Source: a virus. Taken from it: a stretch of DNA of 17,696 nt. Position numbers and translations under genes: made by a program. Location: the IMG/VR virus record IMGVR_UViG_3300031521_000017, one strand, 5' to 3'. How positions within the stretch are numbered: position 1 is the first letter of the stretch; each line of letters begins with the position of its first letter. Shown one piece after another: positions 1 through 14,900 of the stretch. The notes below the pieces were generated by a model. The model did no database searches, was not told the DNA's origin, and was given only the letters and a program-made list of their open reading frames with translations.

Positions 1-1700
1 GCCGCAATAAATCCATTAGGACAACTTGCAATCCCTCTAGCTGTATCTAGAGTTACAAATGTATTAGAGCTGGTAGTTAAATCAGAAAGAATCTCGGAAG
101 ACGCTTCCGCAACCTCAATATTGATTTGAGTTCCAAATCCTACTGAGACAGGAATTGTTTCTGCGACGCCTTCAGATGCCGTTAAGATAAACTCAGTATC
201 TCTCAGAATACTAATATCACTTAAAGAATCCGCAGAGGCATCCGCGATAGATAAAGTTACAAACTCATCTGTAACACTTCCAAGCGAGTCACTCTCGGCA
301 AGCGCTTCAGCGACAACCAATTCAGTTTGAGTATCTGTAATAATGTCAATATCAGCAGAAAAAGAATAACTCTCCGTGCTAGGAATTAAGACTAGACTAT
401 CTATGAGAGTAATTGAGTTTAAACTAGACAAAGCTTCTGATATAGAATCTGCGGGAGAGATCAAAACACTTGTATCAAATAAAGGTAGTATATCTGGGAA
501 AATCTCTCCAGCCGCTTCAGATATAATTAAATCTATCTGAGTATCAGTTTTGATTAATTCTAAAGAACTTTCTGCATTTGCTTCTGAAATTGTCAGGATA
601 ACAACAGTATCATTAATATAAGTAAATTGATTAGGGGTATTTCCTATTGTATCATCACTTATTGAAATTAAAGTAATAGTATCTGTCTTAAAAATAACAC
701 CTGATAATATATCTGCCGCAGCTTCTGAAATAACAAGACTCTCTTGAGTATCTGTTAATACAATAAAATTAGAAAAACAGGTTGAGTCAGATTCAGCAAC
801 ACTTAAAGCCATCAGAGTTGGGCTAGTAGTTGTTATTCCGTCTGCTATATTAGCAGACGCTTCTGCAATCATATTCTCAATAACTGTATCTGTTGCGTAA
901 ACAATCTGATTGAGAGTTTCCGCATTCGCAAAAGCAATACTAATTTCCTTTTGAGTATCTGTAACTACACTTCCAAAAGAACTTTCTGATATTGCTTCGG
1001 CAATTACTAATACAGAAGTTGTATCTGGCGCGGTGTTATATGTTATTTCAGAAGAAGCATCTGATAATGCCTCCGAAATAGATAATACTATATTGGTGTC
1101 AGTCCTAAAACTAATATCACTTAAATTATCAACAGTAGAATCGCTAATCCCCAAAGACACTATAGTGTCTGTTGAATATGTAATTTGATTAGGAATGTCT
1201 GCAATAGCATCTGAAATAACGGGTGGTGCTCTAGTATCTGTTGTACTAACGTATCCAGTTGGAATATCAATATTCGCGTCTGAGACTGGGATTGGAATAG
1301 AGGTGTCGGTTATATAGAGTAAGGTCGACGGATTGTTTCCATTAGCTTCAGTAACAATAAGTATCTGAATAGTCGTTGTTGTGATAGATATAGAATTAGG
1401 GCTGTCCCCTATTGCTTCCGCAATAGAAGAAATTTGATTACTAGGCTCAAAAGTTATAATTCCATTCAAAGCATCTACTACTGCATCAGAAATAACTAGA
1501 ACTGAGTTAGTTGGCTCAACTGTTGTGATTGCATTTGGGAAGTTTCCAATTGCGCTAGAGACTACTAATATTTGGCCAGACGGTTCAGAAGTAGTAATGG
1601 TGGAAGGGGAGCTCCCTGTCGCATTAGCAGCTACCAATGTTTGACTGGAAATAGTTAAAGTGTAAAATTGAATGTTTGTGCCATAAGAGGTTCCGGCACT
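1..1700 (-). repeat. Degenerate in-frame tandem repeat, ~69-nt period (23 aa), at least 20 copies, encoding the pattern [IV][SA]EA.[SA].[DE]....I.[FY].TDT..[SL][LV]. It lies inside the fibre gene and continues past the window edge.
   Basis: The recurring plus-strand motif gc(t/a)tc(t/c)ga(a/t)at is spaced at multiples of about 65-72 nt. Occurrences are at about 107, 172, 241, 306, 437, 517, 581, 722, 860, 997, 1067, 1207, 1417, 1485 and 1557. The translated protein shows matching 22-25-aa units, for example ISEAAADILSGVIFKTDTITLIS and ISEANAESSLELIKTDTQIDLI. Confidence 0.8.
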
Positions 1701-3341
1701 ATTCGTAGCATAAGCTCTATAGTAATAGAATGTAGAATGCGTCAATCCCGCTATATCTCCAGAGAAAGTTCCTGTGGTTCCTGAAATAATTATTTTACTG
1801 TCTACTATTGTCGGATTCGCACTGGTTCTATAGCAAAATCCTCGTTCAGTAATAGTTGCCCCACCATCTGCTGTAATATTACCATTAGCAGTCGCTCCTG
1901 ATGTAGTAATATTAGTAGCCGCAGAATCTGTTACTGTCGGGGTTAGTATGGCGGTGAAATTAGCGGTTACTGTTTTATTGGCAGTAATACTTGTATCGGT
2001 ACGCGAAGCTGTGGTGACTCCATCAGACCAATTAACAAATATATATCCTCCATTAGGAACCGCTGTAACTTGAGACCCATTAGATCCATGGTTAACTGTC
2101 TGTGGAGTGGTTCCTGAAATAGTTCCACCAGTGCCTGCATTGTATGTTAAAGTATACGAATTAATATAGAAATATGCAATAACACTCTTATCTGCTGTAA
2201 CATTCGTATCAGTTCTAGCTGCTGTCCCAACACTGTCTGACCAAATTAAGAAATAGTATCCAGTATTTGGGACTGCTGTTACTTGAGTTCCACTCCCTCC
2301 ATTTGCAACAGTTTGAGGAGTGGTTCCTGAAATAGATCCATTACCAGCAGAGGTGTATGTAAGAGTATAATTTTGGACAGAGGAAGTGGTAAATTGGATA
2401 TCTGTGCCGTAACTTGTCCCAACTGAGTTGGTTGCATAAGCACGATAATGATATAAAGTGCCAGCAGCGAGACCGGTCATACTTCCTGAGTATGAGCCTG
2501 TCGTTCCAGATACAATTATTTTTGAATTAGCAGTTGTTGGGTTTGCACTCGTGCTCCAACAGAATCCTCGTTCTGTAATGCCGGCTCCACCATCTGCGGT
2601 GACATTACCATTGCCTGTCGCAGAAGACTGTCCTACGCTAGTAGCCGCAGAAGTTGTTACCGTAGGAGCTGTTGCAGCCGAAGTTGTTGAAAATTGTTGA
2701 TTAGCACTGTACGTGAGTCCGGCAGAGTTCTGTGCATAGGCGCGATAATAATATCCAGTGCTCGCGGTGAGCCCAGTTATTGAGCCATTGATAGCTCCTG
2801 CCGCCCCGGCACCCAATGAAACATAGTGTCCTGCACCAATGGTCGGGTTCGGACTTGTGCCCCAACAAAAACCTCTGGCGGTAAGCGTTCCCCCGCCATC
2901 TGAAGTAATATTGGCATTTCCAGTAGCAGATGTTGATCCTATGTTAGTCGCAGCAGAAATAGATATAGAAGGAGGGACTACTGTCACATCATTATTTGTA
3001 AACCACATTTCTTGACCAGATCCCGCATACCAGTCTCCGGCATTCGGTACAGATGTTTGTGTTCCAGAAGCGACCAATCCACTATCAAGGAAAACTTGCC
3101 AAGATGACTCATTAAGAGACAGTTCAACGATACTATTTTCTGAAGGATAAACCTCAGCAGAAAACAGAGTTGTCCATGACGGCAATGAATACATAGTAAT
3201 CATGCCTGAGTTGGTGTCAGCATATACAGATAAATATGTTCCTCCAGTAGCACGAGCTATGATGGATGCATCGGGGTATCCCATACCATAGTTATAGGTA
3301 ATAGCGACCCCTAAAAGGCCATTCTTACAACTGCGAGTCAT
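1..3341 (-). CDS. Partial (C-terminus beyond window start) large tail fibre / receptor-binding-like protein, at least 1113 aa. It has an N-terminal beta-sandwich-like region (~130 aa), then FN3-like, FN3-like, Listeria-Bacteroides repeat, Listeria-Bacteroides repeat, FN3-like, then a long array of 23-aa acidic repeats.
   Basis: The minus-strand frame is open from the ATG at 3339-3341 (plus-strand cat) to position 1, with no stop. The RBS GGAG lies ~6 nt upstream, overlapping the stop of the upstream ORF. My own translation shows three copies of the motif T.RGFCW.TS.NPT...G...G.tgL...T.YyYRAYAtNSaG.sYg, which is an FN3-like module common in Firmicutes surface and phage proteins. The RGFCW codons sit at about 2865-2885, 2558-2590 and 1829-1865. 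Two copies match the Listeria-Bacteroides repeat (Flg_new) pattern YTLTY.aG.GG.ISGTTPQTV..G..G.QVTAVPN.GY.F..WSD.V.TA.RTDT..TA.K.V.A.F, at about 2226-2430 and 2025-2225. A degenerate repeat follows. Not listed in the ORF track, presumably because it is truncated by the window edge. Confidence 0.85.
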   Translation of the reverse strand, partial: MTRSCKNGLLGVAITYNYGMGYPDASIIARATGGTYLSVYADTNSGMITMYSLPSWTTLFSAEVYPSENSIVELSLNESSWQVFLDSGLVASGTQTSVPNAGDWYAGSGQEMWFTNNDVTVVPPSISISAATNIGSTSATGNANITSDGGGTLTARGFCWGTSPNPTIGAGHYVSLGAGAAGAINGSITGLTASTGYYYRAYAQNSAGLTYSANQQFSTTSAATAPTVTTSAATSVGQSSATGNGNVTADGGAGITERGFCWSTSANPTTANSKIIVSGTTGSYSGSMTGLAAGTLYHYRAYATNSVGTSYGTDIQFTTSSVQNYTLTYTSAGNGSISGTTPQTVANGGSGTQVTAVPNTGYYFLIWSDSVGTAARTDTNVTADKSVIAYFYINSYTLTYNAGTGGTISGTTPQTVNHGSNGSQVTAVPNGGYIFVNWSDGVTTASRTDTSITANKTVTANFTAILTPTVTDSAATNITTSGATANGNITADGGATITERGFCYRTSANPTIVDSKIIISGTTGTFSGDIAGLTHSTFYYYRAYATNSAGTSYGTNIQFYTLTISSQTLVAANATGSSPSTITTSEPSGQILVVSSAIGNFPNAITTVEPTNSVLVISDAVVDALNGIITFEPSNQISSIAEAIGDSPNSISITTTTIQILIVTEANGNNPSTLLYITDTSIPIPVSDANIDIPTGYVSTTDTRAPPVISDAIADIPNQITYSTDTIVSLGISDSTVDNLSDISFRTDTNIVLSISEALSDASSEITYNTAPDTTSVLVIAEAISESSFGSVVTDTQKEISIAFANAETLNQIVYATDTVIENMIAEASANIADGITTTSPTLMALSVAESDSTCFSNFIVLTDTQESLVISEAAADILSGVIFKTDTITLISISDDTIGNTPNQFTYINDTVVILTISEANAESSLELIKTDTQIDLIISEAAGEIFPDILPLFDTSVLISPADSISEALSSLNSITLIDSLVLIPSTESYSFSADIDIITDTQTELVVAEALAESDSLGSVTDEFVTLSIADASADSLSDISILRDTEFILTASEGVAETIPVSVGFGTQINIEVAEASSEILSDLTTSSNTFVTLDTARGIASCPNGFIA

Positions 3342-3344
3342 GGT

Positions 3345-3635
3345 TTACTCCAAAAATTGAATTGTTGGCAATTTAGTCCTAGGATAGCGACGTCGATAAG
3401 GATCTCCAGTTTGGGCATCCTGATTGGGATAATTACTATCAAAGATTGCCCAATTTTCTGGAGTCGCAGCAACGATAAAAACAGGATCTCCATCTCCTAT
3501 ATCTCTTGTAGAAAATCCTTTATGTAGAGTAGGCTCTTGAGTAATAAAAGGGACGTTTATTTCTACTTCATTTGGCCCTATTTTTTGAGTTACTTTTACT
3601 ATATCACAAGAATAAAATCTTTCTTCTAAGGCCAT
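3345..3635 (-). CDS. Hypothetical small protein (96 aa) in the tail-tip module.
   Basis: ATG start at 3633-3635. An AAGGA motif sits ~11 nt upstream and overlaps the TAA stop of the preceding gene, which suggests translational coupling. Its stop lies 3 nt before the start of the downstream fibre gene. It is co-oriented and tightly packed. I recognise no domain. Confidence 0.6.
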   Translation of the reverse strand: MALEERFYSCDIVKVTQKIGPNEVEINVPFITQEPTLHKGFSTRDIGDGDPVFIVAATPENWAIFDSNYPNQDAQTGDPYRRRYPRTKLPTIQFLE

Positions 3636-3649
3636 GTAGAATCACATCC

Positions 3650-4081
3650 TTAAGAAACAGTGATTCGGGCAAGTCCCAAAGCGTCAAGTTGAATAGTATG
3701 CGTTCCCGCAGGCACTACAACATCGGCACCCATATCAGCATAGCACATAACAACACCAGAAGTGGTGTCATAGAATACGATATAACGATAGGTGAATCCT
3801 GCACCAGTGGCAGTAATTACAATATCAGCTGCGTCAAAAGTAGTAATTAATGCGGCAGTCGTCAATGTAAGAGAAGTTAACGCAACTCCACCTGTGGTAT
3901 ACCCAGTCCCAGAAGCCACTTGGTTAGAAGTATAAGGAGCAGAAGAGAATAAGGTATCATTTGTTTGAGAAGGGGTTAAAGAACTTGTAAATAGAGCAGC
4001 TTTCATTGTATTGCTTGCGTAAGCTTGCTTTAATGAAAGTTGTGAATAAAACTTAGCATATTGCTTAGCAGTAACAGCCAT
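3650..4081 (-). CDS. Hypothetical phage structural protein (143 aa), Thr/Ser/Gly/Ala-rich and probably beta-rich.
   Basis: ATG at 4079-4081 with a strong RBS AAGGAGA 5-6 nt upstream. The composition is typical of small phage tail or baseplate accessory proteins. I recognise no specific family. Confidence 0.7.
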   Translation of the reverse strand: MAVTAKQYAKFYSQLSLKQAYASNTMKAALFTSSLTPSQTNDTLFSSAPYTSNQVASGTGYTTGGVALTSLTLTTAALITTFDAADIVITATGAGFTYRYIVFYDTTSGVVMCYADMGADVVVPAGTHTIQLDALGLARITVS

Positions 4082-4118
4082 TTTATCTCCTTAAATCGAA
4101 AGTTTATGTTTGGTTTGT

Positions 4119-4150
4119 AGGATTGCTTTCACTTTAATGGAAGCAATCCT
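4119..4150. other. Stem-loop: 12-bp stem with one G-U pair (aggattgctttc / ggaagcaatcct) and an 8-nt loop, in the 129-nt intergenic region. On the minus strand it lies about 40 nt upstream of the 143-aa ORF start.
   Basis: Inverted repeat read directly from the sequence. No U-tract follows on the minus strand, and only a weak one on the plus strand. It is therefore more likely a leader, processing or stability structure than a terminator. Confidence 0.45.
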
Positions 4151-4210
4151 ATGTTCGTTATATCTTAAAAAATAACCTATTTGGTTGTCTTAAGTGGGTT
4201 AAAATGTTTA

Positions 4211-7200
4211 TTAGAAGAATTCATAATGTAAAATAGAATTATTCAATACATCATAAGTTTCTCCAGCATTTAAAGTACAACGAAAATTGTAAGTAACGCC
4301 AGATGTTACTGGGATAGAACAATAAATAGGACAATTGATTGTTGTATTTGCGATAGGCCCATGCCATATTCTAGTCGTGAAAAATTGTCCATCAGTATCA
4401 CTCGAAATGGATGAATTTCTAAGATAGATATCTACCCATCCAGTTGAATCAGAAAGGGATAGAGAATCAAGTCTTAACAATCCAGAAATCTTTACAGTTC
4501 CATCTCGGTTGGGAGTGAAAGCCCCATTATTATTATTGAGTGTTATTTTAGAAAGAGAAAGGATATCAGATAAGGAGGCAGATCTTGATAATAAACTCGC
4601 AGTTAGCGTCTTCATTCCAAGACTAACTGCCGCAGGATAACCTTCAAAAGTAGCAGACCCAGTCACAACAATAGATTTGTCTATGGCCAATTTTACAGTT
4701 TGATAAGCTCCGTCATAAGAAGTGGGGCTTAAAGTGACCATACCTGTATCAACACCAAGAAGATTCATCCCATCTCGATAAACAATTAGTTTGTCAGTTA
4801 TAACCCCTTTTTCTCCATAAAGAGGACTAACCGAATCGCTCAATGAGGAAATAAGATCTGTCCCAAAACATCCTGTCCCTGTGAAAGAAGCTTTAGGAAT
4901 TCGAACTCTTGGGGAGTCTAATTCAATATTACCACTTCCATTACTATTAAGATTATTAGAGGAAAGTATAATTCCATCATTTCCTTGTAAAGTAACCTCA
5001 TCTCTTAACTGACCATTTGTTGAGCTGTGGAAAAAACGCAAAAAAGAATTCCCGAGATTATTACTTATATTAAACACACTCATAGAACCAATATTAAATC
5101 CATTTATTGCTCCGGTAAGAAGACCCCCCATTCCTTTAAGTCTTAAGCCTCCATATTCAAGAGCGACTCCCTCTAAAGGATCTTCTGTGTCAGGGTTGGT
5201 TTGGAAGAAAGATGCCCCGGTAATTGATCCTCCTATAATATCTCCTCCATAAATAGTTAAATTTCCATCCCACTTTAAATATTTAGAAGCATTCCCAATA
5301 ACAAATTGATATAGATAATTTTTTAATCCCATCCAAAAGCCGCCACCCGCAGGAGGAGCGCCGTCGGTTATTTCCATACCATGATGAATTACGGGAGTAT
5401 CCATATCAATTTCTGCTTTGACATAGTCTGCCTTCATTATCTGTTTCCAAGGAGTGTCCCAAGGAGGAGAAACTAAAGCATTTCCATCCCCAAGAATAAG
5501 AGCTCTTGTTACCCAAACTTCATCTGTACTATTCTCTTGAACAGGTTGTTTATCTAACCATCCAGAAGGGCTAGGAGAAGTGTTATCTGGAATAGTAACG
5601 CTCGTCGTTCCGGCAGGAAACAGCTTATAAATAGTCTTTATCCAATTCCCTGTTGGGCCAGTAACACTAGTTCCATCAGAAACGACCAATACTGTCTTAT
5701 AATCAACTTGGGTATTGAATCCAGAGTCAGTATAAAGACGACAACGAATTGCTTTATAAGTATTTGATAAAGTAATAACTTTACTAGAGTTAAACCCCGA
5801 TCCAGATGGAATATCAAGATAGTTCAATCCATCAGTAGTATATTGTGTTTTATAGTAACCAGTATAAGAAGCTCTTGTCTCTCCAGATGTTCGAAAAAAA
5901 CTAAATAAAACTTGCGTTGGAGTAAATCCTGTAGAACTTTTTACAACTGTTTGAACACTGGGAGATATATCATAGATAACTGCGTCGTTTCCTTTCGCAC
6001 CGTCTTGAACCTTATAAAGAGTTATAACATCTGATACACTAGAATCTTCAATACTAACTGTCTTGATTGTTATAGATTTTGCGGTAGTTGCCCAAAGGCC
6101 TAAAGGAGATTGATAGCCAATAGTTAAAGTTACTGGATTAGAATCTGTCCAAATTGGGTCAGTAATCCCAACTGACATTGCCGTAGTAGGAGCAGCTCCA
6201 TCTAGACCATAATACCAATGGTAAGCATTCGCTAAATTAGGACTAGGAGAAGAAAGACCCGATTGAATTATCGAAAGTGTGATAGTAGTATTCCCTACAA
6301 TTTGTCCAGTAGTATTAAAATTAAAAATTTGTGGCCCAATAAGAGAAAGAGTTTTCGCAATTCCATTAATTCCAGCAATAGCTTTTGATATAGTTACTGT
6401 TTTTTGAATCGTTACTCCGCCATAAATAACTTGTAATATAACTATCGCTAAGTTTGAAGTTAGTTCTGTTAATGTATAAACACCTGTAGAACTAATATTC
6501 ATATTACATCCAGATTGGCTTACTTTGGAATAAATAGTAGTTGGAGAACCCGAACTTGTTTTTTCAAGAGTGCCATCAAATACTCTAAAAATTCCATTGG
6601 CAGGAGTCAAATCTCCATTAAGGATATTTCCCGCAGAATCTGCGGCTAAAGTAGTATTCTCATTCGTTAAGAATCCAACAATAGCATTGGCTCCAGTAGC
6701 CCCAGTTTTAGATTTCGCTATACTATAGCTTGTTATGTAATTTTTTGAAACTCCATTGATTACAACGGAAGCGGTGATAGTAAAAATTTCGTTGTTAGAA
6801 GTCCAGACAGTATTTTGAGAAAGGTTAATAGTTCCATTTGTGCTTACAGAAAGTTTCAGTCCATGTTGAGTAATTCCTTCTGAGGCAAGAGAAGGCGAAT
6901 AGGTAATCCCAGAAGTTAATAAATTCCCTCCCTTATAAATTTTTACTGCATTCCCTGATGGGAGAGAGGTTACACCCCCATCTTTGTCAGCAGCAACTAC
7001 ATCTGCCTCTGAGATAAGATCAATCAAAACTGTATCATCGCCTTTTTTAGATTTAGCAATTGTATAAGTAGCATTATATACAACATTATTATAACTCGCG
7101 GCGAAAGGAAAACTTACAGAACTGCTAGCAGCAGCCCAAGTTCCAGAAAAAGTTACTACACCACTAGTTGAAATTGTCGCAGTTAATCCGCTTACAGTTA

Positions 7201-8899
7201 AAGCATTAACAATGTTAACTCCAGACATTGCCCCATAAGTAACAAGAGAAGGACTTAATAAGGTTCCTCCTGAATAAAGGTTAATTCCATTATCTGGAAT
7301 TGCAGAATAATTACTTCCATCTGCATCCGCAGAAACAACATCTGACTCAGAAAGCAAATCAATTGTTATTGCACTATCTCCAGTCGCGCCTGTTTTGGAT
7401 TTAGCGATGCTATAATTAGTAGTGCGACTTATAGAAATACCATTAATAACGACAGTTGCCACAATAACAAAAGTCTCGCTATTAGAAGTCCAGACAGTAT
7501 TTTGAGAAAGGTTAATAGTTCCATTTGTATTAATGGAAAGCTTTAAACCATTCTGCGTAATCCCTCCAGAAGCCAAGGAAGGTGTGTAAGAAATCCCACT
7601 TGTTAATAAGCTACCTCCTTTATAAAGTTTAACAGCATTCCCGGAAGGTAATGTGGCAACCCCTCCATCTTTATCTGCAAAAGCGACATCAGCCTCAGAA
7701 ACTAAGTCAATAAGAACTGAATCATCACCTTTCTTAGATTTCGCGATAGTATAAACGGATCTATAAGTAGTGTTATTGATACTATATTTTGCCGCAAATA
7801 TAAAACTCGCAAAACTACTACTATTATTCCAAGTTCCAGAGAAAGTAACAGTCCCATCAATAGTTACACTTGCAGTAAGGCCATCTACTGTTAAAGTATT
7901 AACAATATTATTGCCAGACATAACCCCAAAAGTAATATTTGAAGAATCTATTAAAACTCCCCCACTATATAAACGAATCATATTACTAGGGATAGTAGAA
8001 TAATTACTACCATCGGCTTCCGCAAATACCACATCTGATTCAGAAAGTAAATCAATAGCAACTGCATCATTTCCTTTAATTAAAGACCAAGAGTATAAGT
8101 CTTTATTAGTTGAAGCCGCAGATTCTGTATCTACTAGGATTCCTAAATAATCTCCTGGATCTGTTCCATTGTTTCCAGTAAAAGCATGATTCACGGAATC
8201 ATTTGAATACTTAAAATGAATATAATGGGTTACACCATCCGCTCCCGGATATCCAATTCCATCTTCAGCAACTATCTTTACCGGTCCTTGCCAAGGGTTA
8301 TCCCCGACTCTTTGTCGAAGATAAATTGTGTCAGTCTGAAATTCTACTGTCCATCCCTGAGTTTCTGGATCCGCAGTCAAATTATCTCCAGTGTGAGAAT
8401 ATTCAACATCTAAAACAGCCTCTGGAACTTTAAACCAAGAGTAAGTATAATCACCTTCAGTACCATCTTGCTTAAAGATAAAAGAAATCCCAGTATCAGT
8501 ATTTCTAAAAATATCATTAAGGTGAGCAATCTTTTCCTCTTCTGAAGGCCAGTTAGACGCCGGCGCATTCTCTAAATCTGGATTATAAGTTCCAGACCAA
8601 GTTGAAATAAGACTATTTAAAACTGTGCCGGCAGTAGTCCCAATAATTACTTTTCTATTGGCAAAATCATTAGAAGGGACTAGCACATAAACTTGCGTTC
8701 CATTCTTATAGAAGATGGTACCAGGGTCAGGACAGAAACATGTGATAGAACTGTCTTGATACTGGACTTTATACTCTCCAGTGTTTGGATTGACGCAAGA
8801 AGATACTGTTCCCTGAATTGTCTTATCAAATTTTAATTCTGAAATTCGTTTGCGTACAATGATGTCAATTGCATCACATATATTCTTTTCAATAGTCAT
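4211..8899 (-). CDS. Large tail-tip structural protein (1562 aa) immediately downstream of the tape measure gene. It could be a Dit/Tal-position protein or a central fibre / host-specificity protein. It is beta-rich with four tandem ~115-aa Ig-like modules and a C-terminal lectin-like region.
   Basis: ATG at 8897-8899 with a perfect RBS AAGGAGG, 8 nt spacing. It is Gly/Thr/Ser/Asn-rich and beta-type throughout. It has an internal A-B-A-B module repeat. Being the gene directly after the tape measure gene is the conserved Dit/Tal position in siphophages. The exact family is not recognisable from the sequence alone. Confidence 0.85.
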   Translation of the reverse strand: MTIEKNICDAIDIIVRKRISELKFDKTIQGTVSSCVNPNTGEYKVQYQDSSITCFCPDPGTIFYKNGTQVYVLVPSNDFANRKVIIGTTAGTVLNSLISTWSGTYNPDLENAPASNWPSEEEKIAHLNDIFRNTDTGISFIFKQDGTEGDYTYSWFKVPEAVLDVEYSHTGDNLTADPETQGWTVEFQTDTIYLRQRVGDNPWQGPVKIVAEDGIGYPGADGVTHYIHFKYSNDSVNHAFTGNNGTDPGDYLGILVDTESAASTNKDLYSWSLIKGNDAVAIDLLSESDVVFAEADGSNYSTIPSNMIRLYSGGVLIDSSNITFGVMSGNNIVNTLTVDGLTASVTIDGTVTFSGTWNNSSSFASFIFAAKYSINNTTYRSVYTIAKSKKGDDSVLIDLVSEADVAFADKDGGVATLPSGNAVKLYKGGSLLTSGISYTPSLASGGITQNGLKLSINTNGTINLSQNTVWTSNSETFVIVATVVINGISISRTTNYSIAKSKTGATGDSAITIDLLSESDVVSADADGSNYSAIPDNGINLYSGGTLLSPSLVTYGAMSGVNIVNALTVSGLTATISTSGVVTFSGTWAAASSSVSFPFAASYNNVVYNATYTIAKSKKGDDTVLIDLISEADVVAADKDGGVTSLPSGNAVKIYKGGNLLTSGITYSPSLASEGITQHGLKLSVSTNGTINLSQNTVWTSNNEIFTITASVVINGVSKNYITSYSIAKSKTGATGANAIVGFLTNENTTLAADSAGNILNGDLTPANGIFRVFDGTLEKTSSGSPTTIYSKVSQSGCNMNISSTGVYTLTELTSNLAIVILQVIYGGVTIQKTVTISKAIAGINGIAKTLSLIGPQIFNFNTTGQIVGNTTITLSIIQSGLSSPSPNLANAYHWYYGLDGAAPTTAMSVGITDPIWTDSNPVTLTIGYQSPLGLWATTAKSITIKTVSIEDSSVSDVITLYKVQDGAKGNDAVIYDISPSVQTVVKSSTGFTPTQVLFSFFRTSGETRASYTGYYKTQYTTDGLNYLDIPSGSGFNSSKVITLSNTYKAIRCRLYTDSGFNTQVDYKTVLVVSDGTSVTGPTGNWIKTIYKLFPAGTTSVTIPDNTSPSPSGWLDKQPVQENSTDEVWVTRALILGDGNALVSPPWDTPWKQIMKADYVKAEIDMDTPVIHHGMEITDGAPPAGGGFWMGLKNYLYQFVIGNASKYLKWDGNLTIYGGDIIGGSITGASFFQTNPDTEDPLEGVALEYGGLRLKGMGGLLTGAINGFNIGSMSVFNISNNLGNSFLRFFHSSTNGQLRDEVTLQGNDGIILSSNNLNSNGSGNIELDSPRVRIPKASFTGTGCFGTDLISSLSDSVSPLYGEKGVITDKLIVYRDGMNLLGVDTGMVTLSPTSYDGAYQTVKLAIDKSIVVTGSATFEGYPAAVSLGMKTLTASLLSRSASLSDILSLSKITLNNNNGAFTPNRDGTVKISGLLRLDSLSLSDSTGWVDIYLRNSSISSDTDGQFFTTRIWHGPIANTTINCPIYCSIPVTSGVTYNFRCTLNAGETYDVLNNSILHYEFF
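6724..8107 (-). repeat. Tandem duplication inside the 1562-aa gene. A ~690-nt unit (two ~115-aa modules, A then B) is present twice with long identical DNA stretches. A and B are themselves more distantly related, which makes four modules in total.
   Basis: A run of at least 40 identical nt (gtccagacagtattttgagaaaggttaatagttccatttgt) occurs at 6801-6840 and at 7489-7528, 688 nt apart. The protein repeats such as YSIAKSKTGATGDSAITIDLLSESDVVSADADGSNYS...LYSGG and TINLSQNTVWTSN recur at a spacing of ~229 aa. Confidence 0.85.
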
Positions 8900-8952: not shown

Positions 8953-11900
8953 CTATTTCTTTGTTGCGTGTTGCGCTGCAATATTAGGTAGATTGATTAA
9001 AGCATCCTGAATTTGTTTTGAATCTGTGACATTCGGGAAATTAGCTGTAATCTCGACCTTTTGCTCTAAGATACCTGTTGTTCCGATTGCTCCTCCTGAG
9101 TTGCCAGAAAGAGATGAAACCAAACTAGAAGCAGAGGCCATCGCTCCTGCCTTTAAGTTGTCAACAATAGATCTAACAATAGAAACCGCAGATAATAGAT
9201 TAACAGTATCTTTCTTGTTCAAAATAACCTCTTTATTATGAACAATAGCAAGCTTACCTCCACTATCTCCATCATCCCCAGTATACCCTCCAGATTCGAA
9301 ACCTGGAATGTGATAATAAGCAGGCCAACTTGACTTGGCTTTTCCTGGTCCTCTAACATTGGCTCCCTTGTACGGCGCCTCAAACCATTTGCCATCTATT
9401 TCAATGCCTGTATGATGCCCTGGGTTAAGACCTAAGGTAATTTTCTTACCACGGCCCTCAGAGAACAAGCCGGCTTCCGTGCGAGTAGTAAATCTACCAT
9501 AATTAAAACCAGCCTTTTTAAGCACCCAAGAGTCAAGACCTGAGCAGTCAAAGGCATCTGGACCGGCAGCTCCCCACTTGTAAGGCTTTCCAACTGCGGA
9601 ATAAGCAGCAGACAATGCCTTGGCTACTTGCTTATTGGCTTCTGGAGAAGTAGTGTCTCCATCATCCCCCTTTGTAGAGTCTGTAGGGGTAGGAACCGCA
9701 AAGTTTGGAATATCAAAAGTAGTTCCTGCTTTAGGAGTGTCCCCTGTGATAGCAGTTGTATCCACTCCGCTAGTTATCGCGGAATTAGGAACATTAGTGG
9801 TGCTGCCAGCTTCTGTAGCTTTCGTCTGAATTGAAGTCCCTACGATTTTACCTGAGGCCGCAATCACCTTCTGCATTGCTATTTCATAAGCGTTAAGTTG
9901 AGAAACTACATCTTGGATAGCAATAGATTCACTTTCCATAGTAGTAACTAGGTCTGAACCAGACTTAGACAAAGAAGTTGTCTGCTCTGTTGCGTCAATC
10001 AAAGCATCTGAAATATCGTCAAAATCGACATTCGCAGATGACTGAAGCTTGTCTATTGATCCTTGGTAGTTTGTAGATTCAGTTGTTAATTGTGTCCAAA
10101 GATCACTTGATACTGACTTAAATCCACCCTCTCCTTCAATAGAATCAATCATTCCCTGAAGAGATGAAGTCCATCTACTGTCTGAGGCCGCCATCGCCAC
10201 ATCTTTATTATCTAAGAAAGCTTTATACTCTTCTGAATCTTTACCATATAAACTAGCATATTGATCCATCGTGCTTTGAGCATAATTTTGCTTAGATGTT
10301 TCATTGATCTGGGTTTGCTTCTGCAATAAAGCGCCATACTGGGTATCAAGAGCAACTCGACTCGCTTGCTTTTCAGCTTCTGTGCTTGTCGTATCTAAAG
10401 CAATTTCTTTTGCTTTATCAGTATACTGCTTAAAAGTCTCTTGATAATTAGTTTGACTTTCCTCAAATGCTTTCTTATCTGAATCATATTGTGCCTTTTG
10501 AGCATCCGCCAAATCTTGGCGTGCTTTGGTTAATTGCTTTTGGTCTGCCGCATAAACATAAGAATAATTTCCTTGTGCATTTCTTTGTAGTTGCATTTTT
10601 GTCTTATTGTTTTGTGCATCTTCAAGAGCAATTCTCTTTAATTCAATATCATATGATTGATTTGCTCGATCTAAGTCTCTTTGTGTAAGTACGTCTTTTT
10701 CTCTTAATGCCTTCAATTGTGCATTCATTATGTCTGTTAATTGTTTTTGAGAACTTACATCTTTAGCATTATTGATATTCTCAACCATTTTACTTTGAAG
10801 TTGATTAATACTATAGCCGGCAGTCACAGTATCAAGATAAACTGCGGCATTCTTATTAATCATCGTCCACTCTTCAGAAACTTTCTCTAGTCCTGCACCA
10901 TTGGTGAGTTTATTAGCAAAAGTATCCAAAATTTGATTTATTGAATTAGTATATTTAGTAGTTAAATTATCCATTGAAGTTTCTACAAGAGAATCCAAAG
11001 ACTTCTGAGTATCTTCAACTTTTAGATTAAGAGTATCCCATAGATCTGGATTAGTAATCTTATTAATACTATCTCTAGTATTTGTAAGAACTTTAAGTTG
11101 ATTCTCTAAGAAAACTGCCTGAGCATTATTGTTAACTTCCTGAGCCTGATAAAAATCATCCATTTCTGAATAAGCTTTATCTCCATAGAGAAGTTTCATC
11201 AATGAAGACTGATGCTTTAGAGAACTATTAATATAGTCAAACTGACTACTGACCTCGCCAAAAGATTCCGCAGATTGAGATACCCAGTCAATAGTAGATT
11301 TCTTAACATCATCAATAAGAGTCTTATAAGAAGTTAATCCATCTTCTAATTGAGTTAATAGCGAATCCCGCATATCTGTGGCCGCACTCAAGTCATCTCC
11401 GAAGAGAGAACTATTCTTGCCATTTTGAATCTTTGTGACTTCTTCATTAACAGTGTTTAATTGAGCAGTAAGCTTATCAAGATTCGCATCCCCAACTGCA
11501 TTAAAATATGTAGACAGATCAGCGATAGATACGCCAAGTTTATTAATAGCTTTATCCATATCCAAATCATTAATAACAACAGCTCTAAATTCATTCCACT
11601 TTCTTTCTGCCTCTGCGAAATTGGTACTAACATCAATAGAAACAGAGAACTTCTGGATTGTTATTTCTGTCGCTTTTGCTTGGAAATCAGAAATCTTTTG
11701 AAGAGTATCTTTCATATCTGTTTGAGTTAATTGATCATAGTTAGAAATTTCATCTTTCAGTTTGGTTAAAGCATTCTCAGCAGCCTTTTCTTTCTTCTCT
11801 TCTGCTTTTTGTGCTTTTTCTGTTTTTAGTTTATTGTACCTATCAATTTCCACTTCAACTTTTTTCTCAGCTGCTTTAATTCTGGATTCATAATTGCTTA

Positions 11901-14900
11901 TGTTTCCTTCTTTATCAAACTTTAATCCTTCTTTAGCAAGAGATTTCTGTAATTGTTTTTCATTTAATTTTTGAAGTTCATATTTATCTTTTTCTGCTTT
12001 TACCTGTTTTGCAATTATATCTAGTTGCTTGTTAAGATTAGAAATTAATCCAGATCCAATTAACTTCTTTTGTGCTTCTGAGAGTTTATCAAAATTAACT
12101 ACAAGTTCTGCAATAGTTTTATTGATATTATAATAAGGATCAAATTCAGAAGCAATTTGTTCCATTTTATTAAGATTGGCTTTTGCTTTAGTTTTGCTTC
12201 CTGAACCCGAACCTGATTTAGCAGTGGAAGCAGAAGATGCTGAAGGAATATCAATTTTAACTGTTAGGGCAGCTGTTAAGGCTTTTATTCGATCTTGAGT
12301 AGAAGCTAAATCGGCAGCTGCTTTTGAATTAGAGGTATTGTTAACATAGTCGCGAGCATTTCCTCCCTGTTCGTAAGCAGTAAGAGCCGCTGCCGCTACT
12401 GCAGCATAAGCTCCTTGAAGTTTACCTAATTCAGATCTTAAAGCAGCGAGTTTAGCAATAGCGCCTTCATGTCCCTTTGATATAATTTTAGCAACCCATG
12501 AAGCATAACTTCCAAGATTTAGTTCTTCTAACCCAGTTTTAATAACTGCTGTCCGATAGGCTAGAATTGTCGCCTTAGATTTTGCTCTCGCTGCTTCTAA
12601 TTGCTTTTCCGCCAAAGCCGCTCTTTCGCTACTAGCTCCAGATTTCTTAATAACATCCTTTAAATTTGTTTCTGCGGCAATTACATCTGCTTTTGATTTT
12701 GCAACCTGTTCTTCTCTATTAGCATTGATTTCTAATAAATCTAATTGATCTTGTCGTATAGCATTACTGTTCTTATTTGTTTTATCCATTTTAAGAGTTG
12801 TTTGGATAGCCTTCTCTTGGGCATCTTTTAAAGCAAAAAAGAATTTAACTGAACTAGGATCCATTTTTGCTAAAGTTGGATTAATATCTTTGAGGGCTTT
12901 ATTCAAACCAACAGCGGTTAAACTTCCCTTAGCGAGAGAATCCGAAACAGTTTCATATGCAGCTGCTTCTGGAGTTGCTGCAATCCCCTCAGCTATAATT
13001 TTAATTTTCGCAGGGTTTTCTTTTGAAATTTTATCTTTAAATTTAGTAATATTTTCTAAAGTTTTAGGTTTATCCTCTTCTGGATACATAGAAATAATAG
13101 CATTAAACTGTTTATCCCCACCTAATTTTTGGACAAAACCTTCCACTTGTGATTGAGAAATACCCTTTCCCTTTTCAGTGAAGTTAGAAGTAAGATTCGC
13201 TTGATTTGCCTGAGAAGTCGCTAAAGTCGCATTTGCGTGACTTTGAAGAAGATAATCTCTCGCAGCTTTTTCTGCTTTCTCTGCAGGGACATTATTTCGT
13301 TTGCCATCAGGCCCAGTTTCCATTGCGTGTGCGAGTTTTGCAACTTCATTATTAAGTTCTTTCGTAGAAGCCAACATTTTATTAGAGTTCTCAAAATTAT
13401 ACATTTCCTTTTTAAGGTCAATAATATTTTGCATTTGAACTTCAGTAGCGGCATAAACTGCATCTAGTTTTGCAATATCCTCTGCTTCTTTTTTAACAGC
13501 AGGGTTTTCTGAACCTAAAGTATCTAAATCTTTTTTGTATTGAGCTTTTTTAGAAAGATACTCGGCATATAAATCTTCAGGAGCTCTTCTCATTCTGAAA
13601 CCATATACTCCACCCGTAGTGGGTTTGCTAGAATCTAAAACTCCCCTTGCTTGTTTAGAGTCTGCTGAATCAAGAGCAGAAGTTACTCCTGTAGAAGCCG
13701 CTTTTATAGAATCTTCAAGCTGTTTCTTTAAAGCTTTTGTCGCACTTACTCCGTACTCATCCCATCGTTGAGCATTGGCTGAAGTAATTGCTCCTTGGTC
13801 TTGTAAAGAATTATTTAATGCTTTAGAAGCATCTAATACAGCTTGATAAGTTCCAGTTCCTTCTTTATTGGCTGTTAAAGCAATTTGAAATTGGTCATAT
13901 AAATCTTTATTTTGAATATAAGCTTCTTTCGCAGCTGTGGCTGCCTTCATTGATTCTTCTCGCTGTTTCGCTTGAGCTTTTGCTACTCCAACCAGTCCCG
14001 CAACCATAGCGGCTAAAGCAGCTACAATAAGAGTAATACCAGCAGTCGCAGCCGCATTTGCAGCAGCCGCAGCAGTCGCAGCAGCCGCTTCTTCTGCCTG
14101 AGCGATAGCTAAAGTTTCTGTAGCAACAACCTCTCCACTGATCGCGGCAATGGCCTTGCCTCTTTCCGCGGTTGTCATTTCAGTGGCGATAAGTTCTTCC
14201 GCAGCCGTTTGAATTGTCAAGGCACTTTTTGCCTTTATAGCAACAATTTCTGCAGCTAAAGCAGTTTGTTTTGTAGCAAGCCCTGCTAATTGTTTGACTA
14301 AACCAAGATTTTGTAATGCCTCTCCACTTGCCACAACATTGTATAGCATTTGATATCCTGAAATAACACCAGGAATTATCATAGAAAGAGAGAATAAAGT
14401 TTGTCCTAATTGATCAGCAATGCTAGCATTTTTATCTTGCCAAATAGTTCCTAAATTAGAGACAGAACTAATAGCGAATCCCACTTGACCGATAGTCCCA
14501 GCTAATTCAGTAAACTTTTGAATTGACTGTTGAGTTTTAGCCGTACTTAATAATCTTTCTTGAGAGCCCTTCGTGGCAACTTCTACCGGAGCATTAGCGG
14601 ATTGACTGTCCCTAACTCTTTGCTGCTGAGCAACAATTTCTTGAGCTAAATCACTTCTTCTTTGGACTTCTATCCCTGCTTGAGATGCCATGAATGTAGT
14701 TTGTCCTAAAAATTTCCTTCCTTCATTCCCTTGGAAACTCTTAGCTGTCATTCCATTTAATTCAACCAATCGATCCTCTAAAGCTTTAACACTTATATTA
14801 GCATCTTTTCCATCTACAATAAGATTCTCTAAAGCTTTCTTGAGATTGTTGAAGCTTTTTGTATCTTTATCTCCACTTTCAACACTCTTATATAAATTTT

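Follow-up and report, generated by a model that had tools for sequence, protein, structure and literature searches.

How does a phage carry a giant repeat protein, and which end of that protein faces the cell? These questions are raised by a gene at the left edge of a 17,696-nt stretch of viral DNA (IMG/VR record IMGVR_UViG_3300031521_000017; "the window" refers to this whole stretch). Its product joins an N-terminal domain of unassigned fold to three FN3-like modules and two Listeria-Bacteroides (InlB B-type) repeats, and these to an array of 33 acidic repeats of about 23 residues. We find that it is a modular, tail-associated, fibre-like protein, as had been proposed from the letters of the window alone (the sequence-only reading), and that it is encoded directly behind two small genes that also precede a gene with the same repeat in a phage of very different base composition. 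By analogy with this relative, the protein would be held by its C-terminal end, with its N-terminal modules turned outward.

The reading frame, on the minus strand, begins with an ATG at 3341 and stays open for 1113 codons until it passes base 1, in agreement with the earlier statement that the gene runs off the window. A protein homologue search recovered the full-length product, P0001 (1390 aa), which is identical to the window part and is encoded on two metagenome contigs (38.8 kb in ENA and 126.7 kb in JGI; the surrounding DNA is called L001). The window thus holds the first 80% of the protein. The 277 residues that fall outside it, where the sequence-only reading had supposed a hidden receptor-binding tip, comprise nine further repeats and a repeat-like tail of 69 aa, which has shorter EIxVDT-like motifs and ends at the stop codon; there is therefore no separate receptor-binding head at this end. 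Its place in the genome is that of a tail gene: the order is 2660-aa tape measure protein, 1562-aa protein, 143-aa protein, 96-aa protein, the target, a 123-aa protein, holin, and CHAP/SH3_3 endolysin, so that among the large genes of the tail module the target comes last, between the tape measure and the holin and endolysin. The GGAG ribosome-binding site of the target gene overlaps the stop codon of the 96-aa gene, and the two genes are therefore translationally coupled.

The array covers residues 560-1321 and comprises 33 units of 22-25 residues, of which 24 lie in the window; at least 20 had been predicted. The lag-23 self-identity of the C-terminal region is 0.204, compared with a maximum of 0.145 in 200 shuffles, and there are further peaks at multiples of this lag. 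We set the register by writing the sequence in lines of 23 and by iterating a hidden Markov model (HMM), to which nearly all units align. The consensus is x-[YVI]-x-T-D-T-x-[VI]-x-L-x-[IV]-[SA]-[ED]-A-x-[AGS]-[ED]-x-[LP]-x-x-I. An exact TDT occurs in 12 of the 33 units, with T at the third position of the triplet in 27; the motif [S/A/T][E/D/N]A occurs in 23, the A of SEA in 24, and S or A before it in 29. The most conserved positions are thus polar or small (T, D, T, S/A, E/D, and A) rather than those of a hydrophobic core, and the alternation I-x-Y-x-T-D-T-x-V-x-L-x-I sets inward-type residues over 13 positions of the unit. The predicted acidity is pronounced: the whole array has 12.5% D+E and 2% K+R (net charge -80), and its window part has 76 D+E against 7 K+R (net charge -69). 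Units are 24-28% identical to one another at every separation. A three-unit (69-aa) super-repeat, considered because of a peak at lag 69, is at best marginal (0.279 at separation 3 vs. 0.272 at separation 1).

No Pfam or PHROG family covers the array, and the PDB holds no meaningful match to it. When the array alone was used as query in a word-indexed search of 5.8 billion protein clusters, the protein itself was the sole match. Among 50,697 phage records, megablast found no match to the gene, and tblastn found three, all of them to the FN3-like/Listeria-Bacteroides part and none to the repeat, which fits the earlier remark that such a set of modules is unusual for a phage. In an exhaustive HMMER search of 1.84 billion representative proteins, a profile of eleven three-unit rows retrieved four proteins: the query, P0121 (2.4e-23), P0122 (1.8e-11), and P0123 (5.5e-7). 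We rejected the last two, a protein with a different 23-aa GLTQIDVPVAEALAKHEG repeat and an RTX/VWA giant adhesin, whose scores, in our judgement, arise by adding up many weak matches; designed armadillo repeats in the PDB are scored by this profile too, likewise additively. P0122 itself (970 aa) has about 15 near-identical 23-aa units (GLTQIDVPVAEALAKHEGxLxLD), and its repeat probably folds as a strand-helix solenoid. To judge from these searches, P0121 is the only true relative of the repeat, and the repeat type, with neither a Pfam family nor a solved structure, is new.

P0121 (803 aa; 34% identity to the target over 164 aa by BLAST) begins with a 270-aa region without assignment, followed by six units of 23-25 aa (LVVAEAxADAPSGIxxxTDTxxx; about residues 271-415) and, at residues 433-795, a Prophage_tail/Tal domain (Pfam Prophage_tail, 3.8e-17; phrog "tail tip protein Tal," 5e-33). 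It lies on a prophage-like contig of 65% GC (L002/L003), where the gene order is tape measure, Dit (Sipho_tail), a 142-aa gene, a 93-aa gene, P0121, and a collagen-like protein; tblastn with its N-terminus and repeats against the phage records gave no match. P0121 thus shares with the target the 23-25-aa repeat, the two small genes in front, and the place in the tail module. It differs in having only six repeats, another N-terminal domain, no FN3-like or Listeria-Bacteroides modules, and the C-terminal Tal domain. The siphovirus Tal is a hub embedded in the tail tip. Since the P0121 array precedes this embedded domain, it bridges the part fixed in the virion, at the C-terminus, and an N-terminal domain that is free; the analogous arrangement in the target would point the FN3-like/Listeria-Bacteroides end outward and keep the C-terminal end next to the virion. 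This one relative therefore suggests a polarity opposite to the N-terminal anchoring that the sequence-only reading had assumed.

The two small genes strengthen the link between the two loci. The 143-aa protein is 75% identical to the 142-aa protein of L002 (L002 7243-7671), and the 96-aa protein is 54% identical to its counterpart, while the GC content of the two phages is 37% (target) and 65% (L002), and that at third codon positions (GC3) stands at 0.26 for the 143-aa gene of the window against 0.91 for the matching gene of L002. Such identity despite very different GC3 indicates long-term constraint rather than recent transfer, and the presence of two orthologous small genes before both repeat genes indicates a three-gene cassette kept in a low-GC and a high-GC phage. 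We note that 75% identity across such a gap in GC is unusually strong for a phage structural accessory protein.

In PHROG, the 143-aa protein falls into phrog_644, a family of unassigned function with relatives in several actinobacteriophages. The homologue in Gordonia phage Sixama, gp104, is annotated as "minor tail protein"; an LtfC-like gene (gp103) stands directly before it, and a 583-aa repeat-bearing protein and then lysins follow. Further relatives occur in Gordonia phage GMA1 and Mycobacterium phage WIVsmall. In the Streptomyces satellite MiniFlayer (L006), the relative gp6 is followed by the 68-aa gp7 and the 1376-aa gp8, which carries Laminin_G_3 domains and PMTGSG-type repeats; the MiniFlayer authors describe this region, with its hypothetical proteins, as a possible adsorption module (PMC10690885). 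Our scan of IMG/VR with the phrog_644 family alignment found at least 185 loci, many of them in the MiniFlayer order of terminase, portal, scaffold, major capsid protein, phrog_644, small open reading frame (ORF), and giant. The MiniFlayer-like contigs (e.g., L015, L022, and L031) are small and range from 29% to 70% GC, and their giants have 1100-1800 aa and N-terminal LamG domains. A repeat of about 24 aa, ETPATA/PMTGSG, is common to 16 giants and appears to be an undescribed repeat family. Large proteins with 22-24-aa repeats thus lie downstream from phrog_644 in Sixama, GMA1, MiniFlayer, and many IMG/VR contigs, and the target, directly preceded by a phrog_644 gene and a small gene, fits this layout; its repeat is a rare variant on the theme of a phrog_644 gene followed by a giant with 22-24-residue repeats. 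Homology between the TDT/SEA and ETPATA repeats was considered and rejected (hhalign probability 0.1%), as was kinship of phrog_644 or the 96-aa protein with the LtfC-like gp103 of Sixama, with which neither has any similarity.

The modules at the N-terminal end are assigned with unequal strength. The two Listeria-Bacteroides repeats pass Pfam gathering thresholds, as predicted (Flg_new_2, 78.3 bits over two stretches vs. a cut-off of 23.6, whole-protein E = 4.2e-22; Flg_new, 34.0 bits vs. 27). The prediction of three FN3 domains holds in part. Three modules of about 97 aa are present and, by a module HMM, are homologous to one another and to some 1100 modules in 90 retrieved homologues, whose few named sources are Bacteroidales or Bacteroidetes metagenome-assembled genomes. 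The PDB matches of a 23-module profile are almost all FN3 domains: titin scores 1.4e-8, summed over eight weak domains, and single domains (of DCC, neogenin, contactin, and fibronectin) reach E of about 5e-3, mainly through the E-F-G strand motif. However, all three modules miss the Pfam thresholds of the FN3 clan (12-18 bits vs. cut-offs of 30-39); their best scores are 14.9-17.6 bits for Pur_ac_phosph_N (cut-off 30) and 12-18 bits for the C-terminal FN3_DSCAM (cut-off 39). To judge from these comparisons, the label "FN3-like" is reasonable at the level of fold, short of Pfam-grade membership.

The beta-sandwich that the sequence-only reading had placed at residues 1-121 was not recovered: the region has no match in Pfam, PHROG, or the PDB, and hhalign was negative against the LamG domains of the cassette giants and against the P0121 N-terminus. 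A ConA/LamG-like character of the N-terminal domains of the target and P0121 was an impression of our own, which we set aside for want of hhalign support; neither Pfam nor hhalign detects a LamG domain in the target. We know of no established ligand for either the FN3-like or the Listeria-Bacteroides modules, and the earlier suggestion that the target binds wall polysaccharide or teichoic acid is a guess.

For the array, the small number of relatives allows no deep alignment for structure prediction. AlphaFold2 modeled six repeats from a six-row alignment (the protein's own repeat blocks and P0121) with a predicted local distance difference test score (pLDDT) of 51. This model is all-beta, with one six-residue and one twelve-residue strand per unit and no helices. 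The 830-aa C-terminal region, modeled by AlphaFold from a single sequence, gave an uninformative pLDDT of 37. These low values follow from the missing alignment depth and are not evidence of disorder. A Foldseek search with the six-repeat model found nothing significant (E ≥ 0.5, template modeling score ≤ 0.46). Beta-solenoids predominate among its weak matches, which include DUF3494 ice-binding proteins, family 3 pectate lyase, the CAP C-terminal beta-helix, SV2 luminal domains, FapC, and a tailspike. In its regular, rung-length units and its strand alternation, the sequence has the pattern of a beta-solenoid. Taken together with this alternation, the model and its weak matches suggest that the array is likely to be a beta-rich elongated structure and plausibly the beta-solenoid that the sequence-only reading had proposed; a trimeric intertwined fibre or a stack of hairpins would be alternatives.

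Our preferred reading, which taken as a whole we hold to be somewhat more probable than improbable, is that the target serves a siphovirus-type phage as a virion-associated adhesin or side fibre, encoded in a three-gene cassette, with the repeats as a stalk and the N-terminus distal. The host would probably be a Clostridia-like Gram-positive bacterium. The target would be the large subunit of a portable cassette consisting of the 143-aa phrog_644 protein, a protein of about 70-96 aa, and the large repeat protein. The acidic, beta-rich array of 33 x 23 residues would form an elongated stalk or spacer; the distal region, with the unassigned domain, the three FN3-like modules, and the two InlB-B-type modules, would contact cell-surface polymers; and the C-terminal end, possibly with the two small cassette proteins, would attach to the tail tip. 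The domain content, the repeat and its rarity, the place in the tail module, the conserved cassette, and the architecture of P0121 are observed; that the protein belongs to the virion and that its array acts as a stalk is inferred, as are its polarity, oligomeric state, and ligand.

Several points weigh against this reading. The target matches no tail-fibre family in PHROG, and the array models are of low confidence only. The polarity derives from a single relative, P0121, and this may be an atypical fusion; a Tal domain is absent from the target, whose 69-aa C-terminal tail has no match. The resemblance of the N-terminal domain to lectins lacks hhalign support, and the FN3-like and InlB-B modules, which have no proven ligand, may be mere spacers. 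Virion incorporation is itself something we infer, and classical phage fibres attach by their N-terminus.

This last point leads to the classical alternative, in which the N-terminus sits at the baseplate with the FN3-like and Listeria-Bacteroides modules proximal, the array serves as the shaft, and the 69-aa tail is the receptor-binding tip. Most characterised fibres are known to be anchored in this way, and the 69 residues do differ from the main repeat in their shorter motifs. However, 69 aa is very small for a receptor-binding domain, P0121 has its array N-terminal to the embedded Tal, and the lectin-type LamG domains of other cassette giants are N-terminal; we regard the classical polarity as rather unlikely.

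The conservation pattern of the repeat raises another possibility, that the array is itself the functional surface, either as a multivalent polyanionic T-x-T/S-x-A ladder that engages cations or wall polymers or as a row of docking sites for many copies of the 143-aa or 96-aa cassette protein through beta-strand augmentation. Conserved positions that are polar or small instead of hydrophobic, the net charge of -80, the co-occurrence of repeat arrays with phrog_644, and the LtfC-like gene directly before the phrog_644 gene in Sixama would all suit such a role, and strand donation between LtfA and LtfC, documented in T5-like phages, offers a model for the docking variant (PMC10713586). Against it, the phrog_644 protein has no similarity to LtfC, arrays have anything from 6 to 33 units whereas the small genes stay single-copy, and conserved polar turn residues are typical of structural beta-arcs as well. 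We consider a functional surface of this kind unlikely.

The target might also be no part of the virion at all, but a lysogenic-conversion protein or secreted adhesin carried as cargo beside the lysis genes. FN3-like and Listeria-Bacteroides modules otherwise occur in cellular surface proteins, and the missing tail-fibre PHROG match would fit; however, the protein has no signal peptide, transmembrane segment, LPXTG motif, or SLH motif, its gene is translationally coupled within a tail operon and has the same GC3 as the remainder of the phage, and its relative P0121 is fused to a Tal domain, all of which make this origin very improbable.

At the DNA level, the sequence-only reading had seen in the 69-nt periodicity a built-in mechanism for length variation. 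Tandem Repeats Finder (positions 1-4000, minimum score 30) reports no tandem repeat. Letters set 69 nt apart are identical at a rate of 0.38, above a background of 0.31 ± 0.017. This excess comes entirely from codon positions 1 and 2 (0.39 and 0.42 vs. 0.29), and position 3 shows none (0.338 vs. 0.337). The longest exact internal match is 16 nt. By these three measures, there are no near-identical DNA units able to misalign, and hence no substrate for slippage or homologous recombination. The confinement of the signal to the first two codon positions indicates that the repeats are old and kept by selection on the protein, and the 69-nt periodicity is an echo of the protein repeat. That the region is a contingency locus whose copy number shifts by slipped-strand mispairing or recombination of 69-nt units, as the weak autocorrelation and the 33 copies in the target against 6 in P0121 might suggest, is extremely improbable and already essentially refuted by this evidence, by the low identity of units at any separation, and by the identical protein encoded on both contigs that carry the gene.

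Table 1. Features of the repeat protein and of neighboring genes, in window coordinates
Feature	Position	Strand	Evidence or remark
Target gene, codons 1-1113 of 1390	1..3341	-	3' end past left window edge; identical to P0001
Repeat units 1-24 of 33, aa 560-1113	1..1664	-	Lag-23 autocorrelation; HMM and manual register
FN3-like module 3, aa 466-562	1656..1946	-	Module HMM; 23-module profile vs. PDB; below Pfam cut-off
Listeria-Bacteroides repeat 2, aa 396-465	1947..2156	-	Best stretch of Flg_new_2; Flg_new
Listeria-Bacteroides (InlB B-type) repeat 1, aa 325-394	2160..2369	-	Flg_new_2
FN3-like module 2, aa 224-320	2382..2672	-	Module HMM; 23-module profile vs. PDB; below Pfam cut-off
FN3-like module 1, aa 122-220	2682..2978	-	Module HMM; 23-module profile vs. 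PDB; below Pfam cut-off
N-terminal domain, aa 1-121	2979..3341	-	No Pfam, PHROG, or PDB match
96-aa cassette protein	3345..3635	-	54% identical to 93-aa protein directly before P0121 in L002
143-aa cassette protein, phrog_644	3650..4081	-	phrog_644, E = 2e-16
1562-aa protein	4211-8899	-	Directly after tape measure, where Dit and Tal are expected
Tape measure protein, 2660 aa, TTG start	8953-16935	-	PhageMin_Tail near N-terminus; NlpC/P60 at aa 2449-2487

Among the surrounding genes (Table 1), the tape measure protein would correspond to a tail of about 400 nm by the usual length rule. The 1562-aa protein lacks a Pfam match and recognisable Dit or Tal signatures, and it resembles neither the Dit nor the Tal of L002; stretches within it are duplicated, with NTVWTSN...VVING at about residues 467 and 696. 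The 129-nt gap between the 1562-aa and 143-aa genes (4082-4210) holds a perfect 10-bp inverted repeat, AGGATTGCTT ... AAGCAATCCT, with a 12-nt loop (4119-4150) and no T-run after it, which may mark the cassette boundary or form a regulatory or processing hairpin. Outside the window, the 123-aa gene (L001 14174-14545) begins at the base after the target stop codon. Its product has no family match and no similarity to Tal, and could be a partner of the target C-terminus; its sequence pattern may resemble that of Ig-like baseplate domains. Past the endolysin lies a second cluster of fibre-like genes (1032, 616, and 358 aa; L001 16324-22372), in which the 358-aa protein has a tail Collar domain, and the phage may thus carry two adhesion systems. 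Relatives of the endolysin in species-representative genomes are mostly from Clostridia (among them Lachnospiraceae and Ruminococcus; 30-43% identity). A Gram-positive host fits these matches, which do not pinpoint it, and on their evidence the host is probably Gram-positive. In the window, the higher GC at 2000-4000 was considered as a sign of recent transfer and rejected, since it is due to amino-acid composition (GC at second codon positions 0.62) and GC3 matches the genome. An 80-aa ORF with a GTG start (2458-2700, plus strand), antisense to the FN3-like/Listeria-Bacteroides coding region, is most likely a chance ORF in sequence rich in G/A/T codons.

Little is known of the modules by which phages of Gram-positive anaerobes recognise their hosts. 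If our preferred reading is true, phages can carry on their tails FN3-like and InlB-B modules taken from bacterial surface proteins. A further step, which we offer as doubtful, would make the TDT/SEA array an undescribed type of fibre shaft and the cassette a plug-in adhesion organelle, anchored C-terminally through small-protein adaptors and thus of inverted polarity, that is used both on the tail tips of siphoviruses of Firmicutes and Actinobacteria and in the capsid-proximal region of tail-less satellites such as MiniFlayer. Insight into cassette attachment could make sense of a class of phage and satellite adhesion genes that is widespread yet unannotated, and the cassette could serve as a modular scaffold for retargeting phages.

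Compared with known systems, the target combines familiar features in an unfamiliar arrangement. With beta-solenoid shafts (tailspike beta-helices, DUF3494 proteins, and the pectate lyase fold) its array shares a unit length within the range of rungs, T-x-T-type ladders, and, in a low-confidence model, an all-beta character; however, it has no significant structural or sequence match among them, and natural tailspike helices are rarely so regular in sequence. The lateral fibres of T5-like phages, in which LtfA is attached through the LtfC collar, resemble it in having a small beta-rich accessory protein beside a long side fibre, and they serve reversible adsorption to polysaccharide (PMC10713586). 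LtfC, however, has no sequence similarity to phrog_644 or to the 96-aa protein, and LtfA is anchored N-terminally and has a coiled-coil stem, whereas the target array has no predicted helices. The N-terminal modules have their closest counterparts in cellular proteins: those of Bacteroidota surface proteins with "RGxCW...YYxRAYAxN" FN3-like arrays are 37-54% identical to the target's, and the Listeria-Bacteroides repeats of InlB B-repeat surface proteins (the few named sources are Paenibacillus and Brevibacillus) are 56-65% identical. Signal peptides, anchors (SLH or others), and dozens of modules characterise these cellular proteins, none of which has the 23-aa repeat. The MiniFlayer-type giants differ in carrying Laminin_G_3 domains and the ETPATA/PMTGSG repeat, which is not detectably homologous to that of the target, and their cassette follows the major capsid gene whereas that of the target follows the tail genes. 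Yet MiniFlayer gp6-gp7-gp8 and the MiniFlayer-like contigs have the same layout as the target, with the 143-aa phrog_644 protein, a small protein, and a repeat giant (1100-1800 aa), and the target is thereby tied to a phrog_644 partner that also flanks the MiniFlayer "adsorption module."

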